Origin: Pseudodesulfovibrio piezophilus C1TLV30
GTDB taxonomy: Bacteria > Desulfobacterota > Desulfovibrionia > Desulfovibrionales > Desulfovibrionaceae
NCBI RefSeq assembly: GCF_000341895.1
Contig: NC_020409.1
Location: forward strand, 3,062,411-3,094,410
Length of the DNA stretch: 32,000 bases
Direction: 5' to 3'
Of this stretch, positions 4,989 through 29,855 are shown in pieces. The notes under the pieces are model-generated. The model was not told where the DNA came from, did no database searches, and was given only the letters and a program-made list of their open reading frames with translations. Made by a program: the position numbers and the translations under genes. How positions within the stretch are numbered: the first letter of the stretch is position 1; the number at the start of each line of letters is the position of its first letter.

Positions 4989-5064
<76 letters not shown>

Positions 5065-7705: not shown

Positions 7706-8423
7706 TGGAATTCTCCTTCCGTTAAAGGTTCGGGGCAACGCCCCGGGGCCAAGCAGATCGGACTTTTCCCGTTATCCGGGAAAGACCTGCCTGTGGCGGT
7801 AACCCCGCCACGCATCACCAGCTAAGGGAAGAATGAATGCCCGTTTCCCATTGGAAGAAGATTCCGGAAGACCCAGTCAATAAGGGATGCTGCCCCGCAA
7901 GTGCTAGTCTTGCGGATTGGATGGCAGCCGTAGGGGAAGTACGGCAATGACAAGCGTAGATACTTGTCATTCCACCATCGGCGGGTGCTGCGTTACAGCC
8001 TGCGTGTTTGGATTTGGAAATGGCCGTTTGTTTGGAAAACGGTGCGTGGATCGTTGAAGCACAAGGCTTCGTCATGCGTCATCAGTTCGGACTTCGTCAC
8101 GAACTTATGACGCGCATGAATGCGTTTTACCTCCTTTGGGTTACGGAATTATCCGGTGGATATGCCCAACCATATGACGCCGCAAAACCCTCGCGCAAGG
8201 TCCGGCGGCAGGGTTTCTGCCCCTCCTGCCGATTTTGCCGCGAGCGTGACACAAGCAGTCGCCGGGGCAAGACCAAGCCCTGCGGGCGGACGCTTCGCGG
8301 TCCGGCCTTGCCCCGACGACTTTGCTTGCGTCGAGATTATCGCAGGCGACGGCGAGAGGGATGGCGGGTTTGACTCAGGCTCAAGGGATTTCCTTGGCAA
8401 AGCTTGAGGAATACTATTCAGTA

Positions 8424-14990: not shown

Positions 14991-17639
14991 ATGAAAATAC
15001 ATGTCGGATATCATTTTGACGGTGGGAGCTTCCCGGATGAGCTGGGAACAGATGTCGCTGCAGAGGGGGTAATCACGACCGGCCCGCTCGGCTTGATAAG
15101 TATCCTTGAAACCCGTTTGGGGCTGGTTGGGCCTAAGCCGGGGCAGCCGATTCGCATTGCCCGCTATTTGGCTGCAATGGAAACTCGTTGCAAAATGGGC
15201 GATCCCTTTTACAAAAAATCCTTTGAAGCAGACGGCTGGTCTTCAGCAAGGAGCTTGCTCGCCTTGCGGGATCAACTCCGATTGTCCGGATGGGACGGCA
15301 GCGATATGGGGGGCTCGGCGCGATTGGCCGACATGGTCGCTCTTGAGAAGGAATCGGACATTTTGCCGGGCCTTGCGGAGCGTATTGAAGAGATTCTCGG
15401 GGCTCTCGCCACGTATGGCATTTCAGGGATTTCAGAAATAGCTCTAAATGGGCATGAGCAAGTGGAATGGCCGTCCTGCTGGCGCAGGCTTTTTGCCGCA
15501 CTGGAAGCGGCGGATGTCAGCATCGACGTGGTTCAGCCCGAATATTCCTCGGGCACTTCCTCTGATCTGGAACTGTTACACCGGGCCCTTTGCGCTCAGG
15601 ATATTGGCGACGCAGCTTTTCAGGCGGACGGTTCGCTGATTTGCTTGAGCGCATCCACGGCCCTGGAGGCTGCCGATGCCTTGGGCGCGTGGCTTTCCGC
15701 CGAAGAAACCACGGAAGGAACCGTAGCCATTGTAGCAGAGTCCGTAACAGAAGTTCTCGATGCCGCCATGCGTCGATATGGTTTGCCTCGTCCTGGCGGC
15801 GGAGGTCGATCCCAATGGCGGGCGGCGTTGCAGTTGTTGCCCTTGGGGTTGGGCATTCATTGGGCTCCATTCGATCCGCAACGCTATCTGGAATTTTTGA
15901 CTGCCCCGATTTGTCCCTTGCATCCGGCCATGGCTGGTCGGCTTGTCCGCGCCCTTGAAAAGTCCCCTGGTCTGGGAGGGAAACAATGGCTTGGGGCCCT
16001 TGCCAAGTGTGAAGAGTGGGCGAAGAAGCGAGAAAATGCAGACGAGTTGCTGGAGGCTCTGCGTTTTTGGACCGAGGTCAAAAGGGTTTCGCCTCATGCC
16101 GGTTTGGATGTGGAGACGATCCGAACCGTCTGCCAACGTCTGAGCGACTGGTCCGCAAAGGGCGCAAGGTCCCGGGAAGGTGGGCTGATGGGCGCGGTTT
16201 CCGGCATGGCGTTGGAACTTGCCGAAGCCGCGAGGGCAACAGGCCGACAGGCCATCCCAAAATCGCAATTGGACCGGATGCTTGATTCGGTCATAGGCGG
16301 CGGTGCCGCAGTTGCAGACAGGGCCGAAGCTTCGCCGTGGGTTGTCTTGTCGCATCCGGGGCAGATCGGCGGGAACATCGATACAGTCATTTGGTGGAAT
16401 TTTTCCATGACGGGACTGCCGTCCGGGCGTTTGCCGTGGACCAATGGCGAAGTGGAAGCCCTAAGCAAGGCCGGTGTCCACATGGATGATGTTGATTTAC
16501 AACGGAACCTGGAGCTTTCATCCTGGCAACAGGTTGCGTGTAATGCCGGTAAGCGGCTGGTCCTGGTCATGCCGGAACAGGACGGAGGCGAACCGCTGGC
16601 CCCGCATCCCTTCTGGGAAAACATCGTTGCCGCCATGAATCTTTCCGAAGAGACGGATATCCCGGCCATGACGATATCGGCTTCACAGCTTCGTCGTGGT
16701 AACGGCGCACTGTTGGAAAGATCCATTTCCCTTGATCCCTTGCCGGAAAATGCGGCCCTGGAATTTCAGGAGGCATGGCAGGCTCCGAAAGACGTCATTG
16801 AAAGACGGAAAAAGGAATCGCCGTCGGGGATGTCGCAACTCATCAAGTGCCCTCTGGCCTGGGTGCTCAATCATGTGCTCAAGATCAGCGCCACCGGCAG
16901 CCCGACGCTTGCCGAGGGGAATCAACTCATCGGTTCGTTTTGCCATTCCATTGTCGAGGATCTGATCAACGAATCCCGCTGTTGGAAGCCGGAAGACGCT
17001 GTTGCCCGGGCAATGACCTTGTTTGAATCCCGGCTCAAGGAAATGGCGGCATCATATCTCCTGCCCGGCATGGAAACCAAACGGGAGCAACTCCGTTACG
17101 GGCTTCGCCGTGCGGTCTTCGATTTGTTCAACCGCATCGAGGGCGCAAAGCTCTCAATCGTCGAAAGCGAAAGGGAAGTTGAGCGGATTGACGCGGGAGG
17201 CCAGACATATCGGGGTTACGTCGATATCAGCCTTGAGGATACCAAGGGCAATCCCGTCGTCTGGGATATGAAGTGGACCAACAAGAGCAAGTACCGGCGT
17301 GAGGAATTGGAAAAGGGCATCGCCCTCCAACTGGCGGCCTATTGCTGGATGCTCGACAAGGACGACCTCCCTGCGTTCGGCGCCTATTACATGCTGGCCC
17401 AGGCTCAACTCATTTCCTCCTCGGCCCCATGGCTCCCTCCGGAAGACGTTGTTGATTCCGATTTGAAAGCCACATGGGAGATGGTGCGGGAACGATACGA
17501 CGCCATCATTGATCGCCTGATGACCGGGGATGTGGAGGCCGTCGCGCCCAGTGACGACGGCGAGGAGAAGGAGTTCGATTTCGGCACAGGCTGCTTCTTC
17601 TGTGATTACGCGATGGTTTGCGGGGTTGGATATGAGTAA
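14991..17639 (+). CDS. AddB/RexB-like PD-(D/E)XK nuclease subunit with a Cas4/AddB-type Fe-S cysteine set and no recognisable Walker A
   Basis: 882-aa ORF. Nuclease motif GYVDISLED...VVWDMKWT (D at 17223-17225; D-M-K at 17265-17273). Cysteines: C in LIKCPLAW (16848-16850) plus a C-terminal CFFCDYAMVC, i.e. C-x2-C-x5-C (17592-17621). I could not find a GxxGxGK[ST] motif by eye. Confidence 0.75.
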   Translation: MKIHVGYHFDGGSFPDELGTDVAAEGVITTGPLGLISILETRLGLVGPKPGQPIRIARYLAAMETRCKMGDPFYKKSFEADGWSSARSLLALRDQLRLSGWDGSDMGGSARLADMVALEKESDILPGLAERIEEILGALATYGISGISEIALNGHEQVEWPSCWRRLFAALEAADVSIDVVQPEYSSGTSSDLELLHRALCAQDIGDAAFQADGSLICLSASTALEAADALGAWLSAEETTEGTVAIVAESVTEVLDAAMRRYGLPRPGGGGRSQWRAALQLLPLGLGIHWAPFDPQRYLEFLTAPICPLHPAMAGRLVRALEKSPGLGGKQWLGALAKCEEWAKKRENADELLEALRFWTEVKRVSPHAGLDVETIRTVCQRLSDWSAKGARSREGGLMGAVSGMALELAEAARATGRQAIPKSQLDRMLDSVIGGGAAVADRAEASPWVVLSHPGQIGGNIDTVIWWNFSMTGLPSGRLPWTNGEVEALSKAGVHMDDVDLQRNLELSSWQQVACNAGKRLVLVMPEQDGGEPLAPHPFWENIVAAMNLSEETDIPAMTISASQLRRGNGALLERSISLDPLPENAALEFQEAWQAPKDVIERRKKESPSGMSQLIKCPLAWVLNHVLKISATGSPTLAEGNQLIGSFCHSIVEDLINESRCWKPEDAVARAMTLFESRLKEMAASYLLPGMETKREQLRYGLRRAVFDLFNRIEGAKLSIVESEREVERIDAGGQTYRGYVDISLEDTKGNPVVWDMKWTNKSKYRREELEKGIALQLAAYCWMLDKDDLPAFGAYYMLAQAQLISSSAPWLPPEDVVDSDLKATWEMVRERYDAIIDRLMTGDVEAVAPSDDGEEKEFDFGTGCFFCDYAMVCGVGYE

Positions 17640-20600
17640 GAAAATCGAATTGATAAGCGCGAGTGCCGGGTCCGGCAAGACATACTCCCTGACGGAAAGA
17701 TTCGTGAAAAGCCTTGATGAGGGCGTTCGGCCCGAAAGCGTCGTCGCCACCACCTTCACCAAGAAAGCGGCGCAGGAGATCGGCAGCCGATTCCGTTCGA
17801 AGCTGTTCGAACAGGGACGTGCGGAAGACGCGCAGCGCGTGTTTGGCGGCTATATAGGCACGGTCAACGCGGTCTGTGGAGCACTCCTCAAGGATTACGC
17901 TTTCGAGGTCGGCCAATCCCCGACGTTGGAAGTGGTGCCGGACGGCGAGGATGCCGCCCTCTTCCGCGTGGCTGCTGCCGATGCCGTCGGTCGAAAGGCC
18001 AGGCAGATCGTCCCGCTTGTGCGCTCCCTGGAAATCGAAAAGTGGGAAGACATCGTCAAGGGCATCATCGACAAGGCCAGGGCGAACGCCATTGACCGCA
18101 AGATGATGTTAGAAAGCGGAGAGCGTTCCTGGGAATTGCTCAGGGAGTTGATGCCCGATCCGATTTCCGAAACCGAAGGCAAAAAACTCGATACGGAAAT
18201 CGTGCGCGAATTGAAGCGGACGATCGGCGCACTTCCTTCCGATGGGGATACGAGCAAAGGCACCTTGGGAGCAAAAAAAGACCTTCAGGCCATCCATCGT
18301 ACGTTATCCCAAGAAAGCATTCCCAATTGGGCTACATGGGCCAAGCTGTCCAAAATCAAGCCCACATCAAAAAGTGCGCATGAGGTGGAAACGCTCCATG
18401 AACTGGCCGGACAGTTCCTTCAACATCCCAGGTTCCACAATGAGGTCCGCCAACTCATCACTCTGCTGTTTGACTGCGCCGCCGAAGCAGCGGGCTTGTA
18501 TCAACAGCACAAGCGGACCCTGGGGCTGATCGATTTCACGGATCAGGAAGCCTTGGCCCTGAAGATGGTCGAGGACGCCGCTGTGGCCGACCAACTGAAA
18601 GAGAGGTTGGACATGGTCATGGTCGACGAGTTCCAGGATACCAGTCCCATCCAGTTGGCCTTGTTCCTCAAGCTGTCCAAACTGGTGGACCGGTCGGTCT
18701 GGGTGGGCGACCAGAAACAGTCGATCTACGCCTTCCGTGGTTCGGACCCGGCATTGATGGATGCCGTCATCGATTCGCTTGGCGAGCCGGAGACGCTGCC
18801 GAACAGTTGGCGGTCACAGTCTGCCCTGGTCGATTTTGCCAGCGAATACTTCGCGGTGGCCTTCGGCCAGCTCGGCATCCCCGAAAAACGGGTGCGGCTG
18901 ACCTCCAAGGTGAGGTCGACCACGCCGAAGAGTCCGCATCTCAAATGCTGGCGGTTTGAATCGAAGAACAAGCCCGATGACAGGTTGTGCCTTGTTGGCG
19001 GCATCCAATCCATGCTCGCCGATACGGCGGCATATGCAATTCTCGACAAGACGACAAAAAAAGAGCGTACGCTCAAGGCCGGGGATATCGCAGTCCTCTG
19101 CATGACCAATGACAATTGCCGTGATGTCGCCGCCCTGCTGGAAGAAAACGGCATTCGTGCCGCTATTCCTCGAACAGGACTCATGAAGCGTCCAGAGATC
19201 GTCCTCGTTATGGCTGCCTATCGCTACCTTCTCAGTCCTGAAGACACGCTGGCTGTCGCTGAGCTGGCCAAGATATTTGGCCTGGAGGATTGGTTCTCGG
19301 TGGCCCTGCAAAACGGGATGGATGCAGTCAAGGATCTGCATCCGATGTTCGGACGTTTGGATGATGCTCGTCATGAGCTTGCCTCGTTGACGCCGTCCGA
19401 GGTGCTGGACCTGGCCATCGACCTTTCCGATGCGGGACGCATGGCCCTGGGGTGGGACAACCCTGCCCTCAGACAGGCCAATCTGGACGCCCTCAGGGGG
19501 CACGCCCTAGGGTATGAGTCCACCTGTAAGGCGCGGCGATGCGCCTGCACTCCCGCCGGTCTCATCAATTATTTGCATCAACTGAAAGGGGACGATGCGG
19601 ACTCCCAGGCTGTCGGCGTGGGCGACGATACCGTCCAGGTCCTGACCTATCACCGGTCCAAGGGGCTCGAATGGCCCGTGGTCATCCTGACGGATCTTGA
19701 GTCCGGCGAAAAGGGGAAGCCGTTCGGGCTGAGCGTGCAATCGTCCGACGCCCCGTTTGACCTGGATGATCCCCTGGCTGGCCGGTGGCTTCGCTACTGG
19801 CCCTGGCCCTTTGGTCTGCAAAAGAAAATCGAGGGATTCTCCGATGTGGTTGAAGAAAGCGATGCGGGCCGGACCGCATTCGAGCGGGAGCGCCGGGAGC
19901 GCCTGCGTTTGTTGTACGTCGGAATGACGCGCGCCAGGGACTACATGATTCTCTCAGCCAGAAAGGAAGGCAAAGGGGCACCGACAGCTTGGCTTGACTC
20001 CTATACGGATGCTGGCGGCAATCGGATCGTGTCCTTGCCCAACGTGGCTGGAGTTGCGGAGATTACCGTGGGCGGAAAGACGTTCCCCATTGAGACCGTA
20101 TGCCTCACGCCGATTGGGGAAGTGACACAGGCCGTTGCCGGTCAAAACCATGCCCCAGTTTTGCCGGAGAAGGTGAAGGCCCATCCCCCGGCCCGTTTCG
20201 TGCCGAGCAGCGATACCATCGACGAGGACAATATCTCTGTGGAGTTCTTCGAACTGGGAGCGCCCCTGCTGATCAAGGCCACGGATTCCCGCGTGGATTT
20301 GGGAAATGCGGTGCATGCCTTCCTGGCAGTGGCTTCACCGGAGCAGGACGAGGCGACCCTCAGGACGCGGGCGGAACGGATCGTGACCGGCTTGGGTTTG
20401 AAAGACCTCACTGCCGACATGCTGCTCGAAATGCACCAACGATTGCGGACCTTCATCACAACGACAATCGATCCGGCAGGCACGGGCGAAATCCTCACGG
20501 AGTGGCCGATCCATCTCAAGCGAGGATTGCAAAAAGGCAGCGGCTGGATCGACATGCTGTGCCGCCAACCGGACGGCGACGTCATTATCGACCATAAAAC

Positions 20601-20766
20601 GTCATTGGGCGGCAAAGATGTGCTGGAGAAAAAGGCAATCGGCTATGCTGGACAGTTGGCCACGTATGGGGAAGCACTTCAAAAGGCGACCGGGATATCT
20701 GGACGGGGGATGTGGTTGCATTTCGCGTTGGCGGGGATGATGGCTAGGGTGAATATTCAAGGATAA
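17632..20766 (+). CDS. AddA/RecB-like UvrD-family SF1A helicase with a C-terminal RecB-type nuclease domain
   Basis: I prefer the start at ATG 17632 (MSKKIELISASAGSGKTY), which overlaps the upstream stop as ATGAGTAA. Motifs: AGSGKT 17665-17682, DEFQD 18625-18639, VGDQKQSIYAFRGS, WRSQ, TYHRSKGLEWPVV, YVGMTRARD. Nuclease: GNAVHAFL ... WIDMLCRQPDGDVIIDHKTS (D 20551-20553; D-H-K 20590-20598) ... YAGQLATY. Confidence 0.85.
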   Translation: MSKKIELISASAGSGKTYSLTERFVKSLDEGVRPESVVATTFTKKAAQEIGSRFRSKLFEQGRAEDAQRVFGGYIGTVNAVCGALLKDYAFEVGQSPTLEVVPDGEDAALFRVAAADAVGRKARQIVPLVRSLEIEKWEDIVKGIIDKARANAIDRKMMLESGERSWELLRELMPDPISETEGKKLDTEIVRELKRTIGALPSDGDTSKGTLGAKKDLQAIHRTLSQESIPNWATWAKLSKIKPTSKSAHEVETLHELAGQFLQHPRFHNEVRQLITLLFDCAAEAAGLYQQHKRTLGLIDFTDQEALALKMVEDAAVADQLKERLDMVMVDEFQDTSPIQLALFLKLSKLVDRSVWVGDQKQSIYAFRGSDPALMDAVIDSLGEPETLPNSWRSQSALVDFASEYFAVAFGQLGIPEKRVRLTSKVRSTTPKSPHLKCWRFESKNKPDDRLCLVGGIQSMLADTAAYAILDKTTKKERTLKAGDIAVLCMTNDNCRDVAALLEENGIRAAIPRTGLMKRPEIVLVMAAYRYLLSPEDTLAVAELAKIFGLEDWFSVALQNGMDAVKDLHPMFGRLDDARHELASLTPSEVLDLAIDLSDAGRMALGWDNPALRQANLDALRGHALGYESTCKARRCACTPAGLINYLHQLKGDDADSQAVGVGDDTVQVLTYHRSKGLEWPVVILTDLESGEKGKPFGLSVQSSDAPFDLDDPLAGRWLRYWPWPFGLQKKIEGFSDVVEESDAGRTAFERERRERLRLLYVGMTRARDYMILSARKEGKGAPTAWLDSYTDAGGNRIVSLPNVAGVAEITVGGKTFPIETVCLTPIGEVTQAVAGQNHAPVLPEKVKAHPPARFVPSSDTIDEDNISVEFFELGAPLLIKATDSRVDLGNAVHAFLAVASPEQDEATLRTRAERIVTGLGLKDLTADMLLEMHQRLRTFITTTIDPAGTGEILTEWPIHLKRGLQKGSGWIDMLCRQPDGDVIIDHKTSLGGKDVLEKKAIGYAGQLATYGEALQKATGISGRGMWLHFALAGMMARVNIQG

Positions 20767-20797
20767 TGACTCCCCCTTCATGGGAGAAGGATACGAC

Positions 20798-22312
20798 ATG
20801 GCTGACCAAATGAATTTGTTTAAGGCATACTCCGGTGGGAACCGAGAGGATCTCGAGCATATGGATCGATTGGAAAACAATGTGACGCGCGCCTTTGTTA
20901 TTACGTTGCAATACATTCATGCCGATGAGCCGGATGTGTTTCGGCGTATCCTCGGGGAGATAACTGGGGATAGGGGGAAACGGTTTGAACCAAAGCAAGT
21001 ATGGTTCGATTTGCAGAGTGGGACCCAGGAACTAGTGGCCGCTGCGCAAAAAGATGGGGTCGAGAAAATAATTTTGGCAATTTCCTCACGGAAGGAGGAA
21101 ACTCCGAGGTTTTCCTGTGTAACCCAGTTCGATCGTTTGTTGAAGGACTATGAGGATGTGCCCGACAATGACCAGAAAAAATTTCTAAAGTCTTTAGCCA
21201 AGTGGCAGAAGAAAGGAGAAAGCGAAAAAGAGGTGCGTATTTCCCTGAGGGGCACTGAGTATTCTTTTTCTCCGCACGAAGCTGAAAATGTCTACCGACT
21301 CGTACACGATAATATCCCTGATGGATGGATTGTGGCCCCAGGACGCTATGCGATCCTGATAGAATCGAAAATTGGGAGCGGTCGTATCTGTGAGGAGCAG
21401 CTTTTTCGTCATGCGACTGGGAACAAGGGTTTTAAGCTGTCCGCTCAAGATGTGAAAAATGATGGCAGTGTACAAATCGTCTGTGTCACTTGGGGAAAAG
21501 TCTGCGACGCCTTGGTTGGGGCGAGCAAAGAGCTTAAGGGAATGTCCTTGAAGATAACGGAACAATTTTTGGAGTATATGGAAATGAGCGGGGAAAAACT
21601 GAATTTTGAATTTTTCTTGAGAGGGGCTTACGATGAAAATGGGATGCGTAATCAGTTCCCATTATTGGTTGATAAGATGCAACAAAAGCTCAAGGAAAGG
21701 GATATCCCGCTCGAAGCAGAGAATCGCCCTTTGACAGGTGTCTGGCAGCGATTCAAATATGGGGCGGAGGGAGACATGTTCTATACCTTGCGGGCCTCAG
21801 AAGGCGGGGTAGAGATCTCACTGACTGCTCATAACTCGCTGAAAAAAAAGTTGTATTTAAACAAGGCATGGGCAGGTATTCTCTGGGATATGTGTAGTGG
21901 CTCGGGGAAATGGCTCAGGCACCGTTACCAAGTGATGCTTCATGACTATCGACTGGTGGATAGGCAAAAGGGACAGATGAAAGGAGAAAGCCAAGAGTTG
22001 TTTAATTACCGGTTCACCCTGGGAACGGTGGGAACAAAGGGAGACTTGGATTCCTTGGTCGAGATTGGCAAACAGCTTGTCAAGCTTAAGGACGTAAAGC
22101 AGTTGGATATGACGTTTAAAGTTGGAGTGATCGATGGGAGCAAGATCAAACATGGAGAAGAGGGGACTTTGAGGGCTGAAAATGCCAAGCTGCTCTCTGA
22201 CCCAGAAACCCTTCTGGAATCATTCTGCGATTTTGTAGAAAATACATTTCCTGTATATATGGATGTGCTGAAGCACAAGAGCCAACGTAAGGGCGCCACA
22301 AAGGAAGGATAG
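20798..22312 (+). CDS. Hypothetical protein with an N-terminal PD-(D/E)XK-like motif and a ~300-aa C-terminal region of unknown function
   Basis: 504 aa from ATG 20798, which has GGGAGAAGGA ending 6 nt upstream (track start is 20780). Motif succession: LENNVTRAF ... IPDGWIVAPGRYAILIESKIG (D 21320-21322; E-S-K 21362-21370) ... EQLFRH. G+C is clearly lower than in the two upstream genes. No family recognised for the rest. Confidence 0.6.
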   Translation: MADQMNLFKAYSGGNREDLEHMDRLENNVTRAFVITLQYIHADEPDVFRRILGEITGDRGKRFEPKQVWFDLQSGTQELVAAAQKDGVEKIILAISSRKEETPRFSCVTQFDRLLKDYEDVPDNDQKKFLKSLAKWQKKGESEKEVRISLRGTEYSFSPHEAENVYRLVHDNIPDGWIVAPGRYAILIESKIGSGRICEEQLFRHATGNKGFKLSAQDVKNDGSVQIVCVTWGKVCDALVGASKELKGMSLKITEQFLEYMEMSGEKLNFEFFLRGAYDENGMRNQFPLLVDKMQQKLKERDIPLEAENRPLTGVWQRFKYGAEGDMFYTLRASEGGVEISLTAHNSLKKKLYLNKAWAGILWDMCSGSGKWLRHRYQVMLHDYRLVDRQKGQMKGESQELFNYRFTLGTVGTKGDLDSLVEIGKQLVKLKDVKQLDMTFKVGVIDGSKIKHGEEGTLRAENAKLLSDPETLLESFCDFVENTFPVYMDVLKHKSQRKGATKEG

Positions 22313-22447
22313 AAATGTGTCGTCACTTCGAGTCTTTTAAACCATCAATTCTATAATAAGATATGACCAGCAAAGATCAGTGCATTAAAAAATATTTTTT
22401 GAGGAAGTCGTATTTTGTTGACTAAACAATATACCTCATTACCAATC

Positions 22448-22491
22448 AAAAAAATATAAAGTCCACACATCTGCTTGATGGGTGGACTTTT
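22448..22491. terminator. Hairpin terminator between convergent genes (better T tract on the minus strand)
   Basis: 8-bp stem aagtccac / gtggactt (22459-22466 / 22482-22489) with a 15-nt loop. A7 at 22448-22454 gives T7 after the hairpin on the minus strand. Only TT-TT follows on the plus strand. Confidence 0.5.
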
Positions 22492-22534
22492 GTGGCAGAA
22501 ATTATGCTGACGTAGATGCCTCCGTCAATTGCAC

Positions 22535-22894
22535 CTAATCCCATCTCAACATCTTCTCAAAGGTGTTAGGTGCACGTTCCTTGAGCTTCATTCGGTAAAT
22601 ATATTCCCAATAATACTTCGGATCAATCGGCGAGAGCAGGGGTATATCATACCGCAGTCCAGTGCGTGGGTCTAACATGTTGTAGTAATATGAATCGTTC
22701 TTTTCAACTTGGCTAGCAAGTTCCTCGTCCATTTGCAATTTTTGCGAGGCGAACTGGAATGCGTTCGTATTGTTTGCCATTGCCACCAGAACAACATCTT
22801 TGTCATTTTGGAGGTCTTCAGATACAAGTCGCAGGTTCATCCCGTCTTCTTTGACAGCCTCCAAGGCAGCCTGTTTTTCAGTGATGGCAATCAT
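22535..22894 (-). CDS. DUF4116-repeat protein
   Basis: 119 aa from ATG 22894, which has AGGAGA 6 nt upstream (track start is 22948). AALEAVKEDGMNLRLVSEDLQNDKDVVLVAMANNTNAFQFASQKLQMDEEL fits the DUF4116 repeat pattern as I remember it. Confidence 0.6.
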   Translation of the reverse strand: MIAITEKQAALEAVKEDGMNLRLVSEDLQNDKDVVLVAMANNTNAFQFASQKLQMDEELASQVEKNDSYYYNMLDPRTGLRYDIPLLSPIDPKYYWEYIYRMKLKERAPNTFEKMLRWD

Positions 22895-23172
22895 CGCGTT
22901 TCTCCTTTTGAATTGATTTGCGCTGATGATGCCTGAATCTTGTTCCACAACTTGGAACGTTGTTGCCTGAATATTGTCGGCTTCAAGGTCGATTTATTTG
23001 TGTCGCAGAGGCCCAGCGGCTATTGGCCGTATTTCCCCATCATTGAGCGTATCTCCTCCCCCACTGCCTGCTGGGGGCAGTCTATGGACTCCATCGTGCC
23101 GCCTGTGAAAGAGCGGGAGTAGGTATGATCGTGTCTGTTGTTTGGGGTATCGCCTGTTTGTCTTTCGTTGTA

Positions 23173-23832
23173 TCAACTGGTCAAATATACTCCGTATTCT
23201 CGATACAACCGATAAACAGTGTTAAAAATAATGTCTGATTTTCTTTCGCGAACCAAATCATTTCTGAAAATACAATGCAATTCTGGGGCAAATCCATCCA
23301 CTCTTATAAGCGGGAAGAGCATGTTGAAGTAAGCCTCGTCCAAACAAGTGCAGTCAGCGAGCAGCACAGTAAAGCAGCATTGGTTGGGGGGAATGACGAA
23401 ATTAGCTGATTTTATTTTCAATCCATATCTTAATGCAACAGCAAATTCCATGATTGCTGCGGCCATTGGATTGAAATGCCTGCTTTTAATCTCAAAAACA
23501 ACAGCTTTGTCTTCCGTGTTTTCATTGTAGGCGATTATATCAAGTTGTTTTCTTGGGAATCCTTTGGCTTTCCTTTTGTCCCATTCGATAGTTGGATTTG
23601 CCTCAGCCTTGATTTCGGGAAGGGTGTTAAAACCAGCAATAATGGCATTCTCAAAGGATTTTGAGAAAAAGGTCCTGTCCCCTGGATTTGTTTGCGTTCG
23701 TGCTTCCATCTGGTTTGAAATGGTTTGGAAAAACAGTTGAGCTGCTGAGTGATATCTATCCCTGCGCGAAATTGTTGAACAGACCTTTGAAACGGAGAGA
23801 AGGCCGTCTATGTATTTACTTGTGCCAGTCAC
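23173..23832 (-). CDS. Hypothetical 219-aa protein with a PD-(D/E)XK-like motif, translationally coupled to the WYL regulator
   Basis: GTG start (complement of 23830-23832) lies directly after the TAA of the upstream gene (23833-23835). AGGAGA (23838-23843) is 5 nt upstream. Motif: FENAIIAGF ... QLDIIAYNENTEDKAVVFEIKS (D 23539-23541; E-I-K 23485-23493). Low G+C. Confidence 0.6.
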   Translation of the reverse strand: MTGTSKYIDGLLSVSKVCSTISRRDRYHSAAQLFFQTISNQMEARTQTNPGDRTFFSKSFENAIIAGFNTLPEIKAEANPTIEWDKRKAKGFPRKQLDIIAYNENTEDKAVVFEIKSRHFNPMAAAIMEFAVALRYGLKIKSANFVIPPNQCCFTVLLADCTCLDEAYFNMLFPLIRVDGFAPELHCIFRNDLVRERKSDIIFNTVYRLYREYGVYLTS

Positions 23833-24840
23833 TTATATCTCCTGTCCGCTATATATGTTGGTTGTCCTTTCAAGCTCATTTAGTACCTTCCCTCGCAAGT
23901 GGGAAGGCATCAGCACTTCAATATTTGCCCCAAAGCTCAACACCCAAGACAGTAATTCCGTTTCGCTCTGTGCGGTGAACTCAAGTTCGTATCGCCCATC
24001 ATCCAGGTCCTTAACGACCTGGTCCGAACTCCAGCGGCGTTCTTTTACATAACGCCCGGCTTCTGGAGTGAGGCGTACCTTGACTCGGAACGATTCGCAT
24101 TCCGGAAACCCGAAATAGTGCGGTTTCTCCTGCTGCTGAATGGAATGTTTTTTTCTGACAGGTTCGGCGGCCGTGAAACGGTGGATAGGCAGATGCATTT
24201 CGTAAATAGGCTCAGCTTCTTTGGCCCGTATGTCCACCTTCCAACCGGTGACGTACAGGGCTTCCCTGTAAGACTTAATTTTGAGGGGTGCGAAGTAGTG
24301 CAGCTTCTCCTCCTTTTGCCCCAACGCCTTGTATTTGATCTCGCACACGTCCTTGCCCGCGATGGCATTGAGGATCGTCGTGATGATCGCTTCCTGGGGG
24401 GTGTAGTCGATACTTCCTTTTAGTATGGCCCCGGCCAAGGATTCGAAGGCTTGCGCCCTGTTGTCGAGAGCCGGGAGTAAGGCCACCGTTTTGTGGATGG
24501 TCTCGTCGACCTCTTTCGACAGACCCTGCGGCAGCAGATGGCGGACCATTTCCTTGCAGAGCAGCAAATGGCTGATTTCGTCTTCAGACAAAGCCACTTT
24601 GGGTCTGTTTCTCGGCGTCTGGATTTGATACCAAGTCCGCTTGCCTTCCTTGCCTTTCTCCACTCGAACCGAGTAGCTGCGATCAATATCCTCCATCATG
24701 CGTATAATGGTCTGTTTGGAACAATCCAATTCCCTGGCAAGGTCGATAAGATAATGCCGCTTGCCAGTGTACATGAGCTGGCAGAAGAGCGTGACGGCCT
24801 TCTGAGTCGGCTTGGCGTGTTGGTTTTTCTTGGGCGGCAC
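23833..24840 (-). CDS. WYL-domain transcriptional regulator (HTH, WYL and C-terminal extension; BrxR/CapW-like architecture)
   Basis: HTH: YLIDLARELDCSKQTIIRMMEDID. WYL-like core: KLHYFAPLKIKSYREALYVTGWKV. C-terminal module: RWSSDQVVKDLDDGRYELEFTAQSETELLSWVLSFGANIEVLMPSHLR. I prefer GTG 24840, which has AAGGAGA (24846-24852) 5 nt upstream. The track start TTG 24897 has no SD. Confidence 0.75.
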   Translation of the reverse strand: MPPKKNQHAKPTQKAVTLFCQLMYTGKRHYLIDLARELDCSKQTIIRMMEDIDRSYSVRVEKGKEGKRTWYQIQTPRNRPKVALSEDEISHLLLCKEMVRHLLPQGLSKEVDETIHKTVALLPALDNRAQAFESLAGAILKGSIDYTPQEAIITTILNAIAGKDVCEIKYKALGQKEEKLHYFAPLKIKSYREALYVTGWKVDIRAKEAEPIYEMHLPIHRFTAAEPVRKKHSIQQQEKPHYFGFPECESFRVKVRLTPEAGRYVKERRWSSDQVVKDLDDGRYELEFTAQSETELLSWVLSFGANIEVLMPSHLRGKVLNELERTTNIYSGQEI

Positions 24841-24873
24841 ACGGGTCTCCTTGTGGCGAAATCGGTCGGTCAA

Positions 24874-24947
24874 AGGCAGCACTGCCTCTGGATGCAATCT
24901 TTGATACCAAATAAACCAATATGAAGGAAACCCATAATATTATCGGG
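24874..24947 (-). promoter_or_regulatory. Candidate promoter/operator region of the WYL operon (two palindromes)
   Basis: AGGCAG-ca-CTGCCT at 24874-24887 and CCCATAATATTATCGGG at 24931-47 (core ATAATATTAT is a perfect palindrome). Both lie in the 134-bp gap between the AAA+ gene stop and the preferred WYL start. Pattern only. Confidence 0.3.
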
Positions 24948-24974
24948 ATGATCGTATCTGGCCGAGTGGGCTGA

Positions 24975-27185
24975 CTAAAACCCGATGGCGCGCTGTCTGC
25001 CCGTTTCGTTTTTAATTGCGGATTCCCTTGCCAGGGCTTGGACAAGATCTGCGTGGCGGATTTTGTTCTTCGGGTAGAACGCGAATCGGTCTCGTATGAT
25101 CTTGAAGTCTCCAGGTGTCAGGTTTTTTAGATGGCAAATGGCCTGGAGTTCATTGTCGGTCACCTGTCGGCTTACGAGAGGAGCAAGCATCTTATCGTAA
25201 AAGGAAGCCACGCCCTTCTTGCCCAGAAAATCGAAGAAAATTTTGTGATTGAATCTTCGCAGTGATGCCGAATCCAGTTCGTCCATACGGTTAGTGGTGC
25301 AGATGAGCAGCCCCCGGAAGTGTTCCATCTGGGTCAGGAATTCGTTGACCATGGACGTTTCCCATGATCGAACCGCTTTGTCCCGGCTGAAGAGCAGGCT
25401 GTCCGCTTCATCGATGACCAATACGGCCCGTTGCTTTTCGGCTTGCCGGAATGCCTTGGCTATTTGTTGCTCGCTTTGTCCTACCCACGCGCTCAGGAGG
25501 TCGCTCGTGCGCTTCACTATCAGCTCCCGTTTGAGATGCCGGGATAGATAACGGGACAGTTCCGTTTTTCCAGTTCCCGGAGGGCCGTAGAAAAGCAGGT
25601 TCATGTTGACGCGCAATTCGTCTGAATCCCTTTTGAGGTAGGCGTTGAATGCGTCCAGTTGCTCCAGGAGTGCCGACATGTCTGCATCCAGGTTAAGACC
25701 TTCCAGCGAATAATCGTTTTCAATGACGTCATCCCGCTTGATGGATCTGTCGCCGGATATCAACTGCTGGCTGGCTATGAGGGATCGCTCCACCGCTTGG
25801 AAGAATGGCCTTTTCTTTCGACCGGCTATTTCCTTGGCCTTTTTGATGGCCATATCAATGGAACCTGCGGACAGCGGATAGCGGACGGCAAATGTTTTCA
25901 TTTGATCCCTGGTGAGGAGTCCCAACACCTTGTTCTTGGCAGCAACCCGCTGCCAGATGTTGATGCGCTCGTCACGGCCGAGTTTCTGGAACTTCACGCT
26001 GTAGGCAAAACGCCGCATGACCGAATCCGGAATGCCGAAAGTGTCGTTCGTTATCCATATTGTCCTGGTGCCGGGACGCTCAAGGAATTCGTTGAGCCAT
26101 CCTTTATCCTGCTTGTCGCCCGAGAAGATGTAAGCGAATTCGGTGTTGAGCAGGTTGTCCGCTTCGTCGACGATCACCAACCCTTCCTGTCCATTCCCCG
26201 TCATATTGAGACAAGCTTCGAGAGCTTTTTTGCGTGCTGAGGAATCGCTGTTGTCAGTTGTCCTGACATTATAGGCATTTTGCCCGATTTTATGAGCTGC
26301 CGTCGCGGCGAAGCTGCTTTTACCCGCGCCGGGCTCGCCGTACAAAAGGATATGCGTCGGAGCCGTGTTGTCGGCTTTCAAAAGGGCGAGGATGTGTTCG
26401 GCCACGCCTTCTTCAAGGGGAAAGTACTCTAGGGGAAGGAGTTCTTTCTTCGCCTGCTTGTAGAAAAGGTCCTCCATGTTCTCGAGCGGGGTGGTGAAAA
26501 TTGATTCGACGACCCGGTCAACCGTCAGCGATCCGTATTTGTCTACCAACTCAAGTCTGGAGATTTTCCCGGAAATGGCTTTGTTGAAATCCTGTTGCGA
26601 GATATTCAGCATGGTGGAGAAAACTCCTGATTTCCCCTGCTCTCGACAGCTCAAGTGGGAATCAAAGTATTCATTGAGTATATCCCAATTCTCGAGCAGA
26701 TGAACAGCGAGGATTATAGCCACCTCCGTTTCATTGAGTCGAAAGAATGTTTGCAGAATCTTGCATCCTTTATCGAGGTTGGACTCGTGCGTACCGGGGA
26801 AGTCGTGGAGGCGGTTGCTCAATTGCTCATGCAGAATTGATGCGAGTGGATGAGATAGGGCTACCCCGCATTTCTTTATCAGAATTTCAATATTGTCTGC
26901 GAGGATGCTGTGATCTTCCAAGTCGTCGAAGTGTTGAAGACGTTCCTCCAATTCTCCGGGGGTGAGCTTTTGGGGGCCGGTAACAGTGATCAGTTCCTTG
27001 CATTCGGCCAAAAATTCAGGAGCCCTGTCATTCAGGGCTTTGAGAGAAAACCTGATTGCGTTTTCGTCAAGCGGGATTCCCTTGCTGAGCAACCGCATAA
27101 ACCAGGTGATGCTGGTTTCAAAAACATAGATATCGTCGTCGCTCAAAAATTGGTCAGGAATACGTTCGATGGAGCCAAAGCCCAT
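24975..27185 (-). CDS. Tandem AAA+ ATPase (two P-loop modules, the second of classical SpoVK/Cdc48 type) with a ~270-aa N-terminal domain of unknown function
   Basis: 736 aa; GGAGG lies 5 nt before ATG 27185. Module 1: LLYGEPGAGKSS ... LVIVDEADNLL. Module 2: LLFYGPPGTGKTELS ... VLVIDEADSLL ... ICTTNRMDELDSASLRRF (a second-region-of-homology-like segment). Confidence 0.8.
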   Translation of the reverse strand: MGFGSIERIPDQFLSDDDIYVFETSITWFMRLLSKGIPLDENAIRFSLKALNDRAPEFLAECKELITVTGPQKLTPGELEERLQHFDDLEDHSILADNIEILIKKCGVALSHPLASILHEQLSNRLHDFPGTHESNLDKGCKILQTFFRLNETEVAIILAVHLLENWDILNEYFDSHLSCREQGKSGVFSTMLNISQQDFNKAISGKISRLELVDKYGSLTVDRVVESIFTTPLENMEDLFYKQAKKELLPLEYFPLEEGVAEHILALLKADNTAPTHILLYGEPGAGKSSFAATAAHKIGQNAYNVRTTDNSDSSARKKALEACLNMTGNGQEGLVIVDEADNLLNTEFAYIFSGDKQDKGWLNEFLERPGTRTIWITNDTFGIPDSVMRRFAYSVKFQKLGRDERINIWQRVAAKNKVLGLLTRDQMKTFAVRYPLSAGSIDMAIKKAKEIAGRKKRPFFQAVERSLIASQQLISGDRSIKRDDVIENDYSLEGLNLDADMSALLEQLDAFNAYLKRDSDELRVNMNLLFYGPPGTGKTELSRYLSRHLKRELIVKRTSDLLSAWVGQSEQQIAKAFRQAEKQRAVLVIDEADSLLFSRDKAVRSWETSMVNEFLTQMEHFRGLLICTTNRMDELDSASLRRFNHKIFFDFLGKKGVASFYDKMLAPLVSRQVTDNELQAICHLKNLTPGDFKIIRDRFAFYPKNKIRHADLVQALARESAIKNETGRQRAIGF

Positions 27186-27281
27186 AAATCCCTCCTTGGA
27201 TCAAGATTGCGTGTGCTGGTCTGAGAGTGTAAATGTCGGTCGTTCCAAAATACGGAACAATCTGTTTAGAAAGTATGGCTA

Positions 27282-28460
27282 TCAATCGGGTGGGGAATTT
27301 ATGTCTTTGAGCCAAGCCGAAACGATGTCCCATGAGAGGGCATTGGGTTCCCTGTTTTGGTGGAGCTTGAACTCTTGCACCACAAAGCCGTCGTAGTCTC
27401 TGCCGAGGGCGATTGTGCCGCGTTCGGGCCACAAAACTTTGTAAAACGTGAGTGCTCCGGAAGAAGCTTCGTTGAGATAGCTGAATACGCAGTGGTTCAG
27501 TTCCTCTCCTTCTTCATAAAGCTCATGGACGGTTGTGATGGGGACAATCGTGTCAGTGCCAGGCGCTTTAGGCGCAGCAAGGTCAGGACTCTCTTTTTGT
27601 TTTATGTATGCAGCCAATTTTTGTTCATCAGTGACTTCGTTTGCCCATTTTGAATGAAGGCTCAGTAACTGCTTGTAATCCGAACATCGCTTCAGGGCCT
27701 GCCATGGATCTTGTTTTTCCATGAATTCGGCAATCCGCAGACATTCATAGAATTCTTCGCGTATTCGTTTATAGAGAGAATTGAATGTCTCCTGCTCCCG
27801 AATGAGCTTTTTGAAAAATGCGCAACTGAGCAGGTCTTCGTTCATCTCGGAACGGGACAATGCCTTAAGATTAATTGTCCCACAGTGAAGGAGGTGACTT
27901 GTGATCGCCGTGTCCCCCGTGACTTTCTTGAGGGCAAGGAATTCGTTGAAGTCATAGTCTACCATCAGGATTCGTTTGATGAATTTTACCGAAAGCGATG
28001 GGTTGTACGGATGTAGCTGTTTTACGATCTGTTTCTGTTTGAGCCGAATCAATTCACGACATTCTATATACGACATGCTGCCCGTGCTCATCTGCTCGGC
28101 GATGAGCCAAAGCAGGATGGGATTGGAATGGGCGAGATCAATGGCGTAGGACGTGAAGCGCATCAAGCGAAGGATGTTTAGTTGGTGCCATCTGAAAGGT
28201 TTTGCCAGTTCTCGTATTTCTTTGGGGATTCTGTCGAGGAACCGTTGGCGAACCGGACACGGCTTTCGGAATCTCGGTTGAGTGAAGAGTAGGCGCAGTC
28301 CAGGAAGCCGGTCTACCGGCGTCCATTTTTGGTCAATCCAACAGTAGCAACCAAAATCTGCATTCCACGGCGTCAGGCAGAACGCTGCGCCATCTGCTTT
28401 GAAGTAGAGGCAATCTTGGTCCTTTCGGTGATGTATAAGATCTCGGTCTCGTATTTTCAT
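27282..28460 (-). CDS. PcfJ-like protein
   Basis: 392 aa; GGAGG lies 8 nt before ATG 28460. The C-terminal segment VHELYEEGEELNHCVFSYLNEASSGALTFYKVLWPERGTIAL resembles the conserved EG..hxHCV..Y core of the PcfJ family as I recall it. No search was run. Confidence 0.5.
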   Translation of the reverse strand: MKIRDRDLIHHRKDQDCLYFKADGAAFCLTPWNADFGCYCWIDQKWTPVDRLPGLRLLFTQPRFRKPCPVRQRFLDRIPKEIRELAKPFRWHQLNILRLMRFTSYAIDLAHSNPILLWLIAEQMSTGSMSYIECRELIRLKQKQIVKQLHPYNPSLSVKFIKRILMVDYDFNEFLALKKVTGDTAITSHLLHCGTINLKALSRSEMNEDLLSCAFFKKLIREQETFNSLYKRIREEFYECLRIAEFMEKQDPWQALKRCSDYKQLLSLHSKWANEVTDEQKLAAYIKQKESPDLAAPKAPGTDTIVPITTVHELYEEGEELNHCVFSYLNEASSGALTFYKVLWPERGTIALGRDYDGFVVQEFKLHQNREPNALSWDIVSAWLKDINSPPD

Positions 28461-28796
28461 GAATTATTCCTCCCTGCGTGGAGAAATTATGTCAGAGGAA
28501 TGTTCCAGAAAGCGGAATGTAGGGTCGCTCTTTTGAATTAGGGTGATGCTCTTTCAAAGTGATCCACGGGCCATCCCCTAAATCCCCATCGAAGGCGTAG
28601 TCCTGCCAGCAGGTGCTTTGATGGCCGCCAAGGCCGTGTCCGTTATGTGTCCGCTTTTTCCACGACGCCCTGTAAAAAGCGACGACATTCCGCGCTTTCT
28701 GCACGTTCTGTTCAAAAGTGGCTTGAAGTCGCTTGGCGGCGATAAGTCCTTTGTTTTTAAATTGTTAAGTGGTTAGTCTGGTTCAGTGCCAACAAA

Positions 28797-28842
28797 AATG
28801 GCATTCAAGAGGTCGTGGGTTCGATTCCCTCCAGCTCCACCA
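28797..28842 (+). repeat. attR: 46-nt copy of the tRNA-Ala 3' part (no 5' half, so not a gene)
   Basis: Identical to 5019-5064. The sequence upstream (gttcagtgccaacaaa) has no acceptor or D-arm counterpart. Confidence 0.9.
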
Positions 28843-28851
28843 ATGATTATA

Positions 28852-28886
28852 AAGGCTTAGAAGGTTTTCCTTCTAAGCTTTTTTTT
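28852..28886 (+). terminator. Rho-independent terminator, probably the original tRNA-Ala terminator
   Basis: Perfect 10-bp stem gcttagaagg / ccttctaagc (28855-28864 / 28869-28878), loop tttt, then T8 ending at 28886. Confidence 0.75.
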
Positions 28887-29171
28887 CGTGGGATATACAA
28901 ATGATAGCAAGGTGATTGTGTGTACTTTTCAGCATGGTTAGGCCGTTGGATGTGGCGGTATGGAAAGTGCCTTTTCGCAAAAATGCTCATTTTGAAAAAG
29001 AAAAAATTGACTCTTGAATAAAAATGATCTTTTTATAGCATGTCAGCCACTCAGTACAAGGAAGATTGGATTCACCTTACGTGCAAACAAGCTTGTTTAA
29101 GGTGTGTTTCAGGTCGTAAACATCGTGACAGACTCACATCTGAGACTCCTTAGTATAGGGGGAGGGGGCTT

Positions 29172-29480
29172 TTGAACCCAACCCGGTCGGGCGACGGTCT
29201 CGGAATTGAACTGAAGGTAACTCTAAACCAGCGAGTGCAAGAGATGAGTAAAGAGCAGGAAAAGGTCAAAAAGATTTATATAGGCTACCACCCCCGGACG
29301 CATGACGGCAGCTCTCCGCAAAAACGCTCTCTTGCTGACTCCATTGAAATTATGGAGGCCTTCAACGAAGAGCAGATAGAGGAGAGACTGAAAGCAGAGC
29401 TTGTAGAAATAGCCTGTAGCGATCTTTGCGCTGTTGCTGTCATGGAAACAACGATCTGCAAAGTCTGGCAATATATTTAA
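29172..29480 (+). CDS. Hypothetical small protein (102 aa)
   Basis: TTG start with GGAGG (29161-29165) 6 nt upstream. No recognisable motifs. It is the only SD-supported ORF in a ~1-kb gene-poor stretch. Confidence 0.3.
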   Translation: MNPTRSGDGLGIELKVTLNQRVQEMSKEQEKVKKIYIGYHPRTHDGSSPQKRSLADSIEIMEAFNEEQIEERLKAELVEIACSDLCAVAVMETTICKVWQYI

Positions 29481-29855
29481 GACTCGTCCAACAGCCCTTC
29501 CTTCATTTTTGCTGTGGTGTCTCGTTTCTTTAGAGAGAATCCATCAATTCACTGCTCAGGTCTCTGTGGCTGGGCGATTTTTTTGGAACGGTCTCCCTCC
29601 CAAAAAAAGTCAGAATCCCTTGCAGTACCTCTCTTACCCCCAATAGAACGTGTCGACCAGGAATCTGGAATAGAGGTTGAGCGTCGATTGGCGGGTGTGC
29701 GATTCTGCGAAAACAAGTGGAAAATGTTTCTCCAGTCGTCTTCCTGGTAAAATTCCCCCTATCTCCCCTCCTCATTTGCGTGTTCCCGTGTCTTGAGGTA
29801 CGCCCATTGGTCTGCTTGGTGGCGGAGTTTGATCACTGCATAAATGAGGAATTGA

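Follow-up and report, generated by a model that had tools for sequence, protein, structure and literature searches.

A putative PD-(D/E)xK nuclease carried as cargo beside a WYL-domain regulator in a tRNA-Ala island of Pseudodesulfovibrio piezophilus

Variable defence hotspots between the conserved flanking genes of integrative islands are a general concept, and BrxR-type WYL regulators that head defence islands were reportedly described by Luyten and colleagues in 2022. Regulators of the WYL family sense single-stranded DNA (ssDNA), which AddAB-type enzymes produce. In Picton et al. 2022 (PMC9122601), BrxR-type WYL regulators likewise head defence islands, and the BrxR operator R-BOX1 is flanked by a -10-like box on one side and the ribosome-binding site on the other; according to PMC6789036 and PMC10853764, PafBC and DriD control DNA-damage responses. 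Here we analyse a 32,000-nucleotide stretch of the genome of Pseudodesulfovibrio piezophilus C1TLV30 (contig NC_020409.1, positions 3,062,411 to 3,094,410; hereafter the window), in which the gene of a WYL-domain regulator directly abuts that of an unannotated protein of 219 amino acids (aa). We describe the gene structure of this locus, the fold and catalytic motif of the 219-aa protein, the geometry of coupling between the two genes, an operator-like repeat in the regulator leader, the boundaries of the surrounding island and slot, and the defence content of related loci. On balance, and with moderate confidence, we favour the view that the 219-aa protein is a solitary putative PD-(D/E)xK nuclease of a new and very rare family, carried as variable-slot cargo of a tRNA-Ala island, co-expressed with a BrxR-like gatekeeper WYL protein and acting as a defence effector.

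The locus shares several features with BrxR-type regulators, including the WYL-WCX layout expected of the class, with a weakly detected helix-turn-helix (HTH), an inverted repeat between a -10-like box and the regulator start, and, in relatives, variable defence genes downstream. It differs in that the window regulator has no detectable match to BrxR structures and in that its subfamily is recurrently accompanied by a tandem AAA+ ATPase, a partner not mentioned for BrxR in the passages of PMC9122601 consulted. The ssDNA-sensing WYL regulators CapW (of CBASS), DriD and PafBC belong to the same domain family as the window regulator, and by analogy with them it is plausible that a nucleic-acid cue switches on the downstream genes here too; the gene controlled, however, would be a single small putative nuclease rather than CBASS or a damage regulon. 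With PfoI, PspGI, EcoRV and Mrr-like type IV enzymes, the 219-aa protein shares a predicted core fold, the D...ExK motif, a size of ~220 aa and a location in a defence island. In contrast to these enzymes, it has no sequence-level kinship to Pfam or PDB families (TM-scores to PfoI, PspGI and EcoRV are 0.35-0.42), has its own N-terminal three-helix region, and has no methyltransferase nearby.

As in other defence hotspots, we find conserved flanks and low-GC cargo, homology breaks off sharply, and the slot holds different defence systems in close relatives. What sets this hotspot apart is that one flank is the regulator itself, with the breakpoint falling within its last ~25 codons, so that cargo can become co-transcribed with the regulator and even translationally coupled to it. 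The Azaca system (ZacABC) stands beside the ATPase and WYL genes in relatives but is absent from the window, where the genes of the 219-aa nuclease, a DUF4116 protein and a 510-aa protein take its place.

The regulator gene, its leader and the junction with the nuclease gene

The regulator is a WYL-WCX transcription regulator of 335 aa, encoded on the minus strand at 23836..24840 from a GTG start, an assignment based on Pfam, PADLOC and the starts of homologues. The Pfam scan returned WCX with 72 bits (E 5e-20) and WYL with 21.2 bits (E 2.9e-4), just below the cut-off of 21.8; the PADLOC WYL model matched at E 8e-25, with its long model spanning residues 44-334, and PF13280 is present in the more distant homologues (<=60% identity). 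Both the WYL and the WCX features of the wHTH-WYL-WCX class are thus found. The N-terminal HTH expected of the class is detected weakly, through a match to an NCBIfam HTH regulator family at residues 29-73 (E 0.002) and through weak matches of the family profile to MarR/DeoR-type HTH chains among PDB sequences (E 0.25-0.35). An earlier note on this DNA, made from its letters alone, had proposed an HTH-WYL-C-terminal layout; the WYL and C-terminal parts of that proposal are borne out by Pfam and PADLOC, and the HTH is weakly visible.

The same note had likened the regulator to repressors of the BrxR/CapW type. The domain layout and the presence of defence genes downstream in relatives agree with this, but membership of that clade by sequence does not: a profile of 37 regulator homologues, searched against PDB sequences, matched PafC (5e-9), DriD (7e-8) and CapW (E 0.05), the PafC and DriD matches being confined to the WCX region, and returned no BrxR chain at E <= 1.

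The start of the regulator is GTG 24840 (MPPKKNQHA...), since an ATG occupies this position in relatives and an invariant AGGAGAC precedes it in the window and in relatives. With this start, 134 bp of leader (24841..24974, minus strand) separate the ATPase stop from the WYL start, as had been proposed. Two palindromes in this leader had been put forward as operators, and they fared differently. The one at 24874-24887 is a true 6-2-6 inverted repeat, AGGCAG TG CTGCCT, and forms the inner part of an operator-like inverted repeat, TCAAAG-N23-CTTTGA, at 24870..24904, which occurs once in the window against 0.09 occurrences expected by chance. An alignment of the leaders of the window, Pseudodesulfovibrio portus and the L017 and L101 loci contains three invariant blocks, ATGGG-TTCC, TTTGGTATCAAAG and GTGC-GCCTTT; the first follows an A/T-rich box, and the other two are the arms of the inverted repeat, which therefore sits at a conserved position between the -10-like box and the ribosome-binding site. 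In the L101 leader the repeat comprises 11 perfect base pairs around a 4-nt spacer (z -6.0). In L017, a Pseudodesulfovibrio metagenome-assembled genome, it reads GTATCAAAGGCTGCACC N7 GGTGCAGCCTTTGATAC (8765-8805) and forms 17 perfect base pairs around a 7-nt spacer (dG -31.8, z -8.2); far stronger than its degenerate counterpart in the window, it would suit binding studies well as a probe.

The second palindrome, at 24931-24947, is imperfect: it consists of a 10-bp ATAATATTAT core with CCC/GGG arms that are one base out of register. In relatives its palindromy is lost and its A/T-rich -10-like box (TATTAT), followed by the invariant ATGGG-TTCC, is kept. By sequence it is better read as the -10 region than as an operator, although a scan with the sigma-70 consensus did not call it. 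That the leader hairpin is primarily an intrinsic terminator for the ATPase gene was set aside as the main reading, given that the hairpin is followed by no U-tract, lies downstream of the -10-like box and gave no signal in a terminator scan. A near-match to one half-site at 24623-24635, inside the WYL coding region, covers the conserved TWYQI codons and is probably a coincidence; in a scan of the window, the operator-like site was present only in the WYL leader.

At the junction with the downstream gene (23830..23843, minus strand), direct reading of the sequence gives a regulator 3' end of ...GGA CAG GAG ATA TAA, with the TAA at 23835-23833. The GTG of the nuclease gene (23832-23830) follows immediately and opens a 219-codon open reading frame (ORF) that runs to 23173, and an AGGAGA within the last codons of the regulator (23843-23838) lies 6 nt 5' of this GTG. 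The abutting TAA and GTG and the AGGAGA are all as the earlier note had read them. That the GTG is a real start is indicated by the N-termini of the homologues, which begin within 1-2 residues of it, and by the invariance of S5, Y7 and C18 in the three closest homologues. The stop-start abutment and the AGGAGA 6 nt upstream support the proposal that, in the window genome, the two genes are built for expression as one unit. The two genes share one frame with a single TAA between them, and read-through of the stop codon at 23830-23835 would yield a WYL-nuclease fusion; such a fusion is unsupported, and every homologue of either protein ends or starts at this junction.

The 219-aa protein and its predicted fold

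The 219-aa protein, the first cargo gene (23173..23832, minus strand), represents an unannotated PD-(D/E)xK-fold family according to its ORF, its AlphaFold (AF2) model and Foldseek, and is a putative nuclease effector. It had been described as resembling nothing known, and sequence searches agree. At E <= 0.01, Pfam and PHROGs returned nothing; PADLOC and NCBIfam gave only marginal matches (E 0.003-0.006), to unrelated models. All 15 family members gave only noise against Pfam, and the family profile had no match among PDB sequences. Relatives are few: a complete HMMER search of 1.84 billion cluster representatives recovered 14 proteins of 214-244 aa and 25-40% identity, and a word-indexed search of 5.8 billion proteins recovered one sequence of 95% identity. 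The family was not found with a narrower alignment in JGI metagenomes and IMG/VR, and tblastn against phage and plasmid collections gave no match.

The earlier note had pointed to an E...D...E-I-K motif in this protein. Most of it stands: in the alignment of the 15 sequences, whose mean column identity is 32%, P80, K95, D98, E114 and K116 are invariant, so that the catalytic-type motif D98 ... E114-I-K116 (23485..23541, minus strand; D98 codon 23541-23539, K116 codon 23487-23485) is upheld by alignment and model, but the upstream E61 is variable. Prediction from the single sequence was unusable (pLDDT 38). With the shallow 15-sequence alignment on which it rests, the AF2 model reached a pLDDT of 91.1 and a pTM of 0.88, and it predicts an N-terminal three-helix region followed by an alpha-beta-beta-beta-alpha-beta core (H54-68, E74-78, E99-103, E110-116, H120-136, E137-142). 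D98 opens the predicted strand beta2 (99-103) and E114-x-K116 closes the predicted beta3 (110-116), which are the canonical positions of these residues. The best Foldseek matches in the PDB were the restriction-type enzymes PfoI (E 2e-4) and PspGI, followed by Can2, Card1, Cas4 SSO0001, NucS, a CdiA-CT toxin and EcoRV; the top matches are all PD-(D/E)xK enzymes, and among viral models the matches were uncharacterised phage proteins and Mrr/PD-(D/E)xK entries. The model and these matches support the nuclease fold suggested beforehand, and we consider membership of the 219-aa protein in the PD-(D/E)xK superfamily, as a putative nuclease, well supported by structure prediction. An hhalign comparison of the family with PDDEXK_4 and Cas4-like neighbours aligned the D...ExK residues with those of PDDEXK_4, but at a probability of 2%, and was set aside.

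A Pfam scan of the 17 larger ORFs of the window found no methyltransferase domain, and without a methyltransferase nearby the protein is not classifiable as a classical type II enzyme. Tight repression, dependence on modification, or specificity for a DNA structure could each apply to the putative nuclease.

A variable slot in a tRNA-Ala island

Both genes lie inside an integrative island of 23.8 kb. A repeat search showed that the last 46 nt of the tRNA-Ala(GGC) gene (4989-5064), which form attL (5019..5064, plus strand), are repeated perfectly as attR (28797..28842, plus strand), and these copies bound the island; ordinary metabolic genes lie outside them. A weak tRNA-like (tmRNA) Rfam match below the gathering score covers attR, and apart from this remnant a Rfam search of 20000-30000 found no RNA family. 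Two tyrosine recombinase (integrase) genes follow the tRNA gene (5142-6329 and 6746-7738). The island holds a second defence gene, encoding an Hhe/PDC-S37 helicase-nuclease of 1968 aa (8424-14330, minus strand) with DUF4011, helicase, MTES_1575 nuclease and DUF3320 regions; it matches PADLOC PDC-S37 over its full length with 1205 bits, and also Hhe.

Within the island, the nuclease gene occupies a low-GC segment (20745..23905) delimited by blastn and GC content between the convergent 3' ends of the WYL gene and an AddA-like gene. The conserved right-hand flank of this slot is a helicase-nuclease pair on the plus strand at 14991..20766, an AddB-like protein of 882 aa (Pfam PDDEXK_1) and an AddA-like protein of 1078 aa (UvrD and PDDEXK_1). 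In blastn comparisons with four close relatives, homology ends at 23906-23924, 70-90 nt before the WYL stop, and resumes in three of the four at 20743/20744, ~20 nt before the convergent AddA-like stop. As a consequence of the first breakpoint, the C-terminal ~25 residues of the WYL protein diverge among proteins that are otherwise 80-92% identical. The slot measures 3.16 kb and has a GC content of 0.41-0.47, against 0.51-0.58 in its flanks; for the nuclease and WYL genes the values are 0.41 and 0.52.

Two further genes share the slot. The second co-oriented cargo gene (22535..22948, minus strand) encodes a DUF4116 protein of 137 aa (Pfam, 6e-17); it lies 224 bp 3' of the nuclease gene with no terminator-like site called between them, and may be read through from the WYL-nuclease transcript. 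No DUF4116 gene stands beside any of the nuclease homologues examined. A family-less protein of 510 aa (20780..22312, plus strand), whose gene begins 14 bp after the AddA-like gene, had no match in Pfam, PADLOC, NCBIfam or PHROGs and no homologue in related loci.

To compare the contents of the slot, we collected 63 homologues of the regulator, the closest from P. portus (92% identity), and 85 loci of WYL relatives, 80 of them from a genome scan with an alignment of homologues and five from look-ups and a metagenome scan. The genome scan relied on one conserved peptide pattern, and 80 of its 181 matches were kept; genes in these loci were called by a longest-ORF procedure. A genome scan with the single WYL protein gave no match, and the metagenome scan for close WYL relatives yielded two short contigs only.

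In P. portus, the backbone of PcfJ-like, ATPase and WYL genes is the same as in the window and a different four-gene cargo sits where the window has the nuclease: in this species and in L017, an 87-aa ORF overlapping the WYL stop is followed by genes for 444-aa, PLD-like 668-aa and SNF2 875-aa proteins, an Azaca-like trio. The slot of L100 holds a PvuRts1I/SRA methyl-directed restriction enzyme (PADLOC, 1.5e-86), and that of L101 two small ORFs and a DUF2779 nuclease. More distant arrangements are comparable. In L045 the order ATPase-PcfJ-WYL is followed, 24 bp on, by canonical ZacA, ZacB and ZacC (5e-87, 7e-134 and 2e-271), in L087 ATPase-WYL is followed by a Cas4-like nuclease 31 bp on, and in L083 a Cas3-like helicase-HD gene lies 10 bp 3' of the WYL gene. 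Defence systems directly downstream of the WYL gene thus occur in relatives (L045, L100, L017, L097, L083 and L087), and the window's own downstream gene belongs to an unclassified family.

Canonical ZacABC or a divergent Azaca-like trio (~440 aa, PLD-like, SNF2 helicase) stands beside ATPase-WYL in six loci, with Azaca-like trios in P. portus, L017, L033, L092 and a plasmid of Desulfosarcina BuS5; this may possibly be a regulated form of Azaca. Coordinates of Azaca or Azaca-like genes are 5000-10856 in L045, 11305-17262 in L097 and 8115-13971 in L102. In 12 loci an AddA-like gene lies no more than 10 kb from a WYL relative. Besides the window, AddB/AddA-like genes were seen at this distance in L018, L020, L025, L032, L033, L065, L066, L072, L078, L097 and L100, and they directly adjoin the WYL relative in L025, L072 and L078.

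Taken together, the breakpoints, base composition and contents of this slot identify the nuclease as an exchangeable passenger of a hotspot that the regulator gene itself bounds on the left. Given the recognised defence systems in this neighbourhood of relatives, association makes defence effector the most likely role of the 219-aa protein, and BrxR-like gatekeeper that of the WYL protein. In the sequence of events that we envisage, the nuclease gene would have been acquired as cargo between the convergent WYL and AddA-like backbone genes, and its landing would have put the nuclease start against the regulator stop. Since the start abuts the stop, transcription of the nuclease gene would begin at the WYL promoter, with translation by termination-reinitiation. 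Binding of the WYL protein to the conserved inverted repeat of its own leader would most likely govern how much of either protein is made. If BrxR, CapW and DriD are a guide, DNA binding by the WYL protein may change in response to a nucleic-acid cue, for instance ssDNA arising from phage attack or DNA damage; expression of the nuclease would rise, and the enzyme would then cut invading or cellular DNA.

Several points weigh against this interpretation. The TM-scores of the Foldseek matches are low (0.35-0.53) and therefore speak for superfamily membership only, and for no specific enzyme type. No methyltransferase or immunity gene is present, which leaves the avoidance of self-damage unexplained. 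The leader repeat of the window is degenerate (8-bp stem, z -1.4), and so is that of P. portus. Sequence comparison places the regulator closer to PafC and DriD, which are activators, than to BrxR and CapW, which are repressors, so that it may act with either sign. A consensus promoter scan called no promoter inside the WYL gene, but it also missed the leader promoter, and an unrecognised promoter may lie within the WYL gene. Finally, nuclease activity and its target, repression or activation by the WYL protein, its ligand and an anti-phage role, and with them all functional statements on the two proteins, are matters that we infer.

The ATPase partner and competing explanations

The WYL and nuclease genes belong to an arm of five co-oriented genes on the minus strand, running from 28460 to 22535 and encoding the PcfJ-like, AAA+ ATPase, WYL-WCX, 219-aa and DUF4116 proteins. 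It had been suggested that the WYL protein controls this whole arm, and this seems only partly right, as the operator-like site lies downstream of the PcfJ-like and ATPase genes. The ATPase (24975..27185, minus strand) is a tandem (type II) classical AAA+ protein of 736 aa, Cdc48/VCP-like, with Pfam AAA matched in two stretches (6e-40), best PDB relatives in Cdc48/VCP (1e-29), and both Walker A and Walker B motifs legible in its translation. It has no strong match to a PADLOC model. An assignment to IetA of the IetAS (Gao_Iet) system was rejected: the NCBIfam IteA model scored 104 bits against a cut-off of 510, over the C-terminal AAA domain only, and a Pfam scan found no protease gene in the arm that could be an IetS-type partner. 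CoCoNuT was likewise discarded as a parallel for a WYL protein with a Cdc48-type ATPase, its ATPase context being different.

The first gene of the conserved arm (27282..28460, minus strand) encodes a PcfJ-like protein of 392 aa (Pfam PcfJ, 3e-10); it is kept in P. portus and lies between ATPase and WYL in L045. A literature search on the PcfJ-like protein gave only C. elegans pCFJ plasmids. A 21-nt direct repeat of 86% identity, at 25086-25106 (ATPase 3' end) and 28443-28463 (across the PcfJ start codon), is probably due to chance and to similar K-I-R-D-R codons.

The conserved partner of the regulator is the upstream tandem AAA+ ATPase. A homologue of the ATPase adjoins the WYL gene in 34 of the 85 loci, and in 19 of the 45 that have at least 2.5 kb on both sides, in four arrangements: upstream and co-oriented (13), divergent (15), downstream and co-oriented (5) and convergent (1). 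Adjacency that persists while gene order is rearranged usually points to a functional link, here between the ATPase and the WYL protein. The pair spans Thermodesulfobacteriota, Hydrogenedentota and Krumholzibacteriia, where it stands beside Azaca-like, DUF2779 and AddAB-like genes, and it also occurs on the Desulfosarcina BuS5 plasmid, where the annotations read 'WYL domain-containing protein' and 'AAA family ATPase'; it may be an undescribed regulator pair. Apart from the ATPase and AddA-like genes, the commonest neighbour in WYL loci is DUF2779 (6 of 134 neighbouring genes scanned), and the rest are heterogeneous. From these findings one could tentatively propose, as a possibility to which we give limited credence, that the ATPase and this WYL subfamily, sometimes with the PcfJ-like protein, form a conserved sensor-regulator pair, a portable socket through which exchangeable defence effectors are controlled. 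These effectors would be mutually non-homologous and would include Azaca-like trios, methyl-directed restriction enzymes, DUF2779/Cas4-like nucleases and the 219-aa nuclease; the target of the unfoldase-type ATPase would be either the WYL protein or the effector, and infection could lead it, for instance, to remove the repressor or to activate the nuclease.

A further explanation, which we regard as unlikely, is that the tandem AAA+ ATPase, the WYL protein and an interchangeable PD-(D/E)xK nuclease form a three-part system in which the 219-aa effector needs the ATPase to act. The recurrence of the ATPase-WYL pair in its four arrangements agrees with it, as do DUF2779 genes beside the pair in L032, L038, L042, L073, L086, L089 and L101, a PDDEXK_4 gene between ATPase and WYL in L057 and the Cas4-like gene after WYL in L087. 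In addition, upstream of the WYL gene on the contigs that carry the nuclease homologue P0005 lies a divergent gene of at least 682 aa, with the size and position that the ATPase gene would have. Many ATPase-WYL pairs, however, have no nuclease nearby and are accompanied instead by ADP-ribosylglycohydrolase, RtcB, nitroreductase or hydrolase genes, and in L100 the WYL gene occurs together with a cargo gene in the absence of an ATPase gene.

The earlier note had favoured a dedicated, self-contained module of two genes, the WYL regulator and the 219-aa nuclease, that is inducible and travels together. The abutting stop and start, the ribosome-binding site within the last codons of the regulator and the restriction of the operator-like site to the WYL leader would fit such a module, and a nuclease homologue of 30% identity, P0005, likewise lies 22 bp after a 339-aa WYL/WCX gene on two contigs. 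Surveys from both sides nevertheless make it improbable. The proposed search of WYL genes for the same downstream partner found no member of the nuclease family in any of the 85 loci (profile search of all ORFs, E <= 0.01), from which it follows that the pair is not a conserved unit, and different genes follow the 92%-identical WYL gene of P. portus. On the nuclease side, among the eight family contexts besides the window, only that of P0005 has a WYL gene directly upstream. P0002 is preceded by an unrelated 276-aa gene and P0004 by a metallo-beta-lactamase-fold gene; P0003 stands alone beside a phage tail gene; P0006 lies near GmrSD and DUF2726, P0008 in an integrase island adjoining ResIII-GmrSD-methyltransferase genes, and P0009 between RadC-like and AlkZ-like genes. 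P0007 comes after a KptA-like gene, with a WYL gene 3 kb off; it is also placed tail to tail with a DUF2779/Cas4-like nuclease (L012, 6040-8215), DUF2779 being the commonest companion of ATPase-WYL elsewhere. The homologues are thus solitary genes near GmrSD, restriction-modification, DUF2779 and RadC-type genes, and GmrSD, met twice, is their only recurrent neighbour family. The breakpoint inside the WYL 3' end and the difference in GC content between the two genes also speak against such a module, and in roughly half of the loci the gene that follows WYL points the other way, so that downstream coupling is occasional and no trait of the family. As an evolutionary unit, the compact two-gene module is accordingly not upheld.

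That the nuclease instead works on behalf of the mobile element or in DNA repair, perhaps in end or junction processing with the AddAB-like enzymes, or is a decaying passenger of no regulatory meaning, seems to us equally hard to credit: its position between the WYL and AddAB-like genes, which co-occur in 12 loci, the nearness of the regulator by sequence to PafBC and DriD, which govern DNA-damage responses (PMC6789036 and PMC10853764), and one homologue beside a phage tail gene would suit it, but the catalytic residues and full length are kept across the family, the same slot holds recognised defence systems in relatives, homologues lie in restriction and GmrSD neighbourhoods, and no repair gene recurs with the family.

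Returning to the interpretation of the 219-aa protein as a defence effector carried in a variable slot, our findings add an unclassified and very rare PD-(D/E)xK family to the candidate single-gene defence nucleases. They also provide a concrete route by which cargo can be wired to a regulator, in that incoming genes can inherit the WYL promoter and even its ribosomes. If the ATPase-WYL pair is indeed a functional regulator module, it would represent a new layer of control over defence islands.

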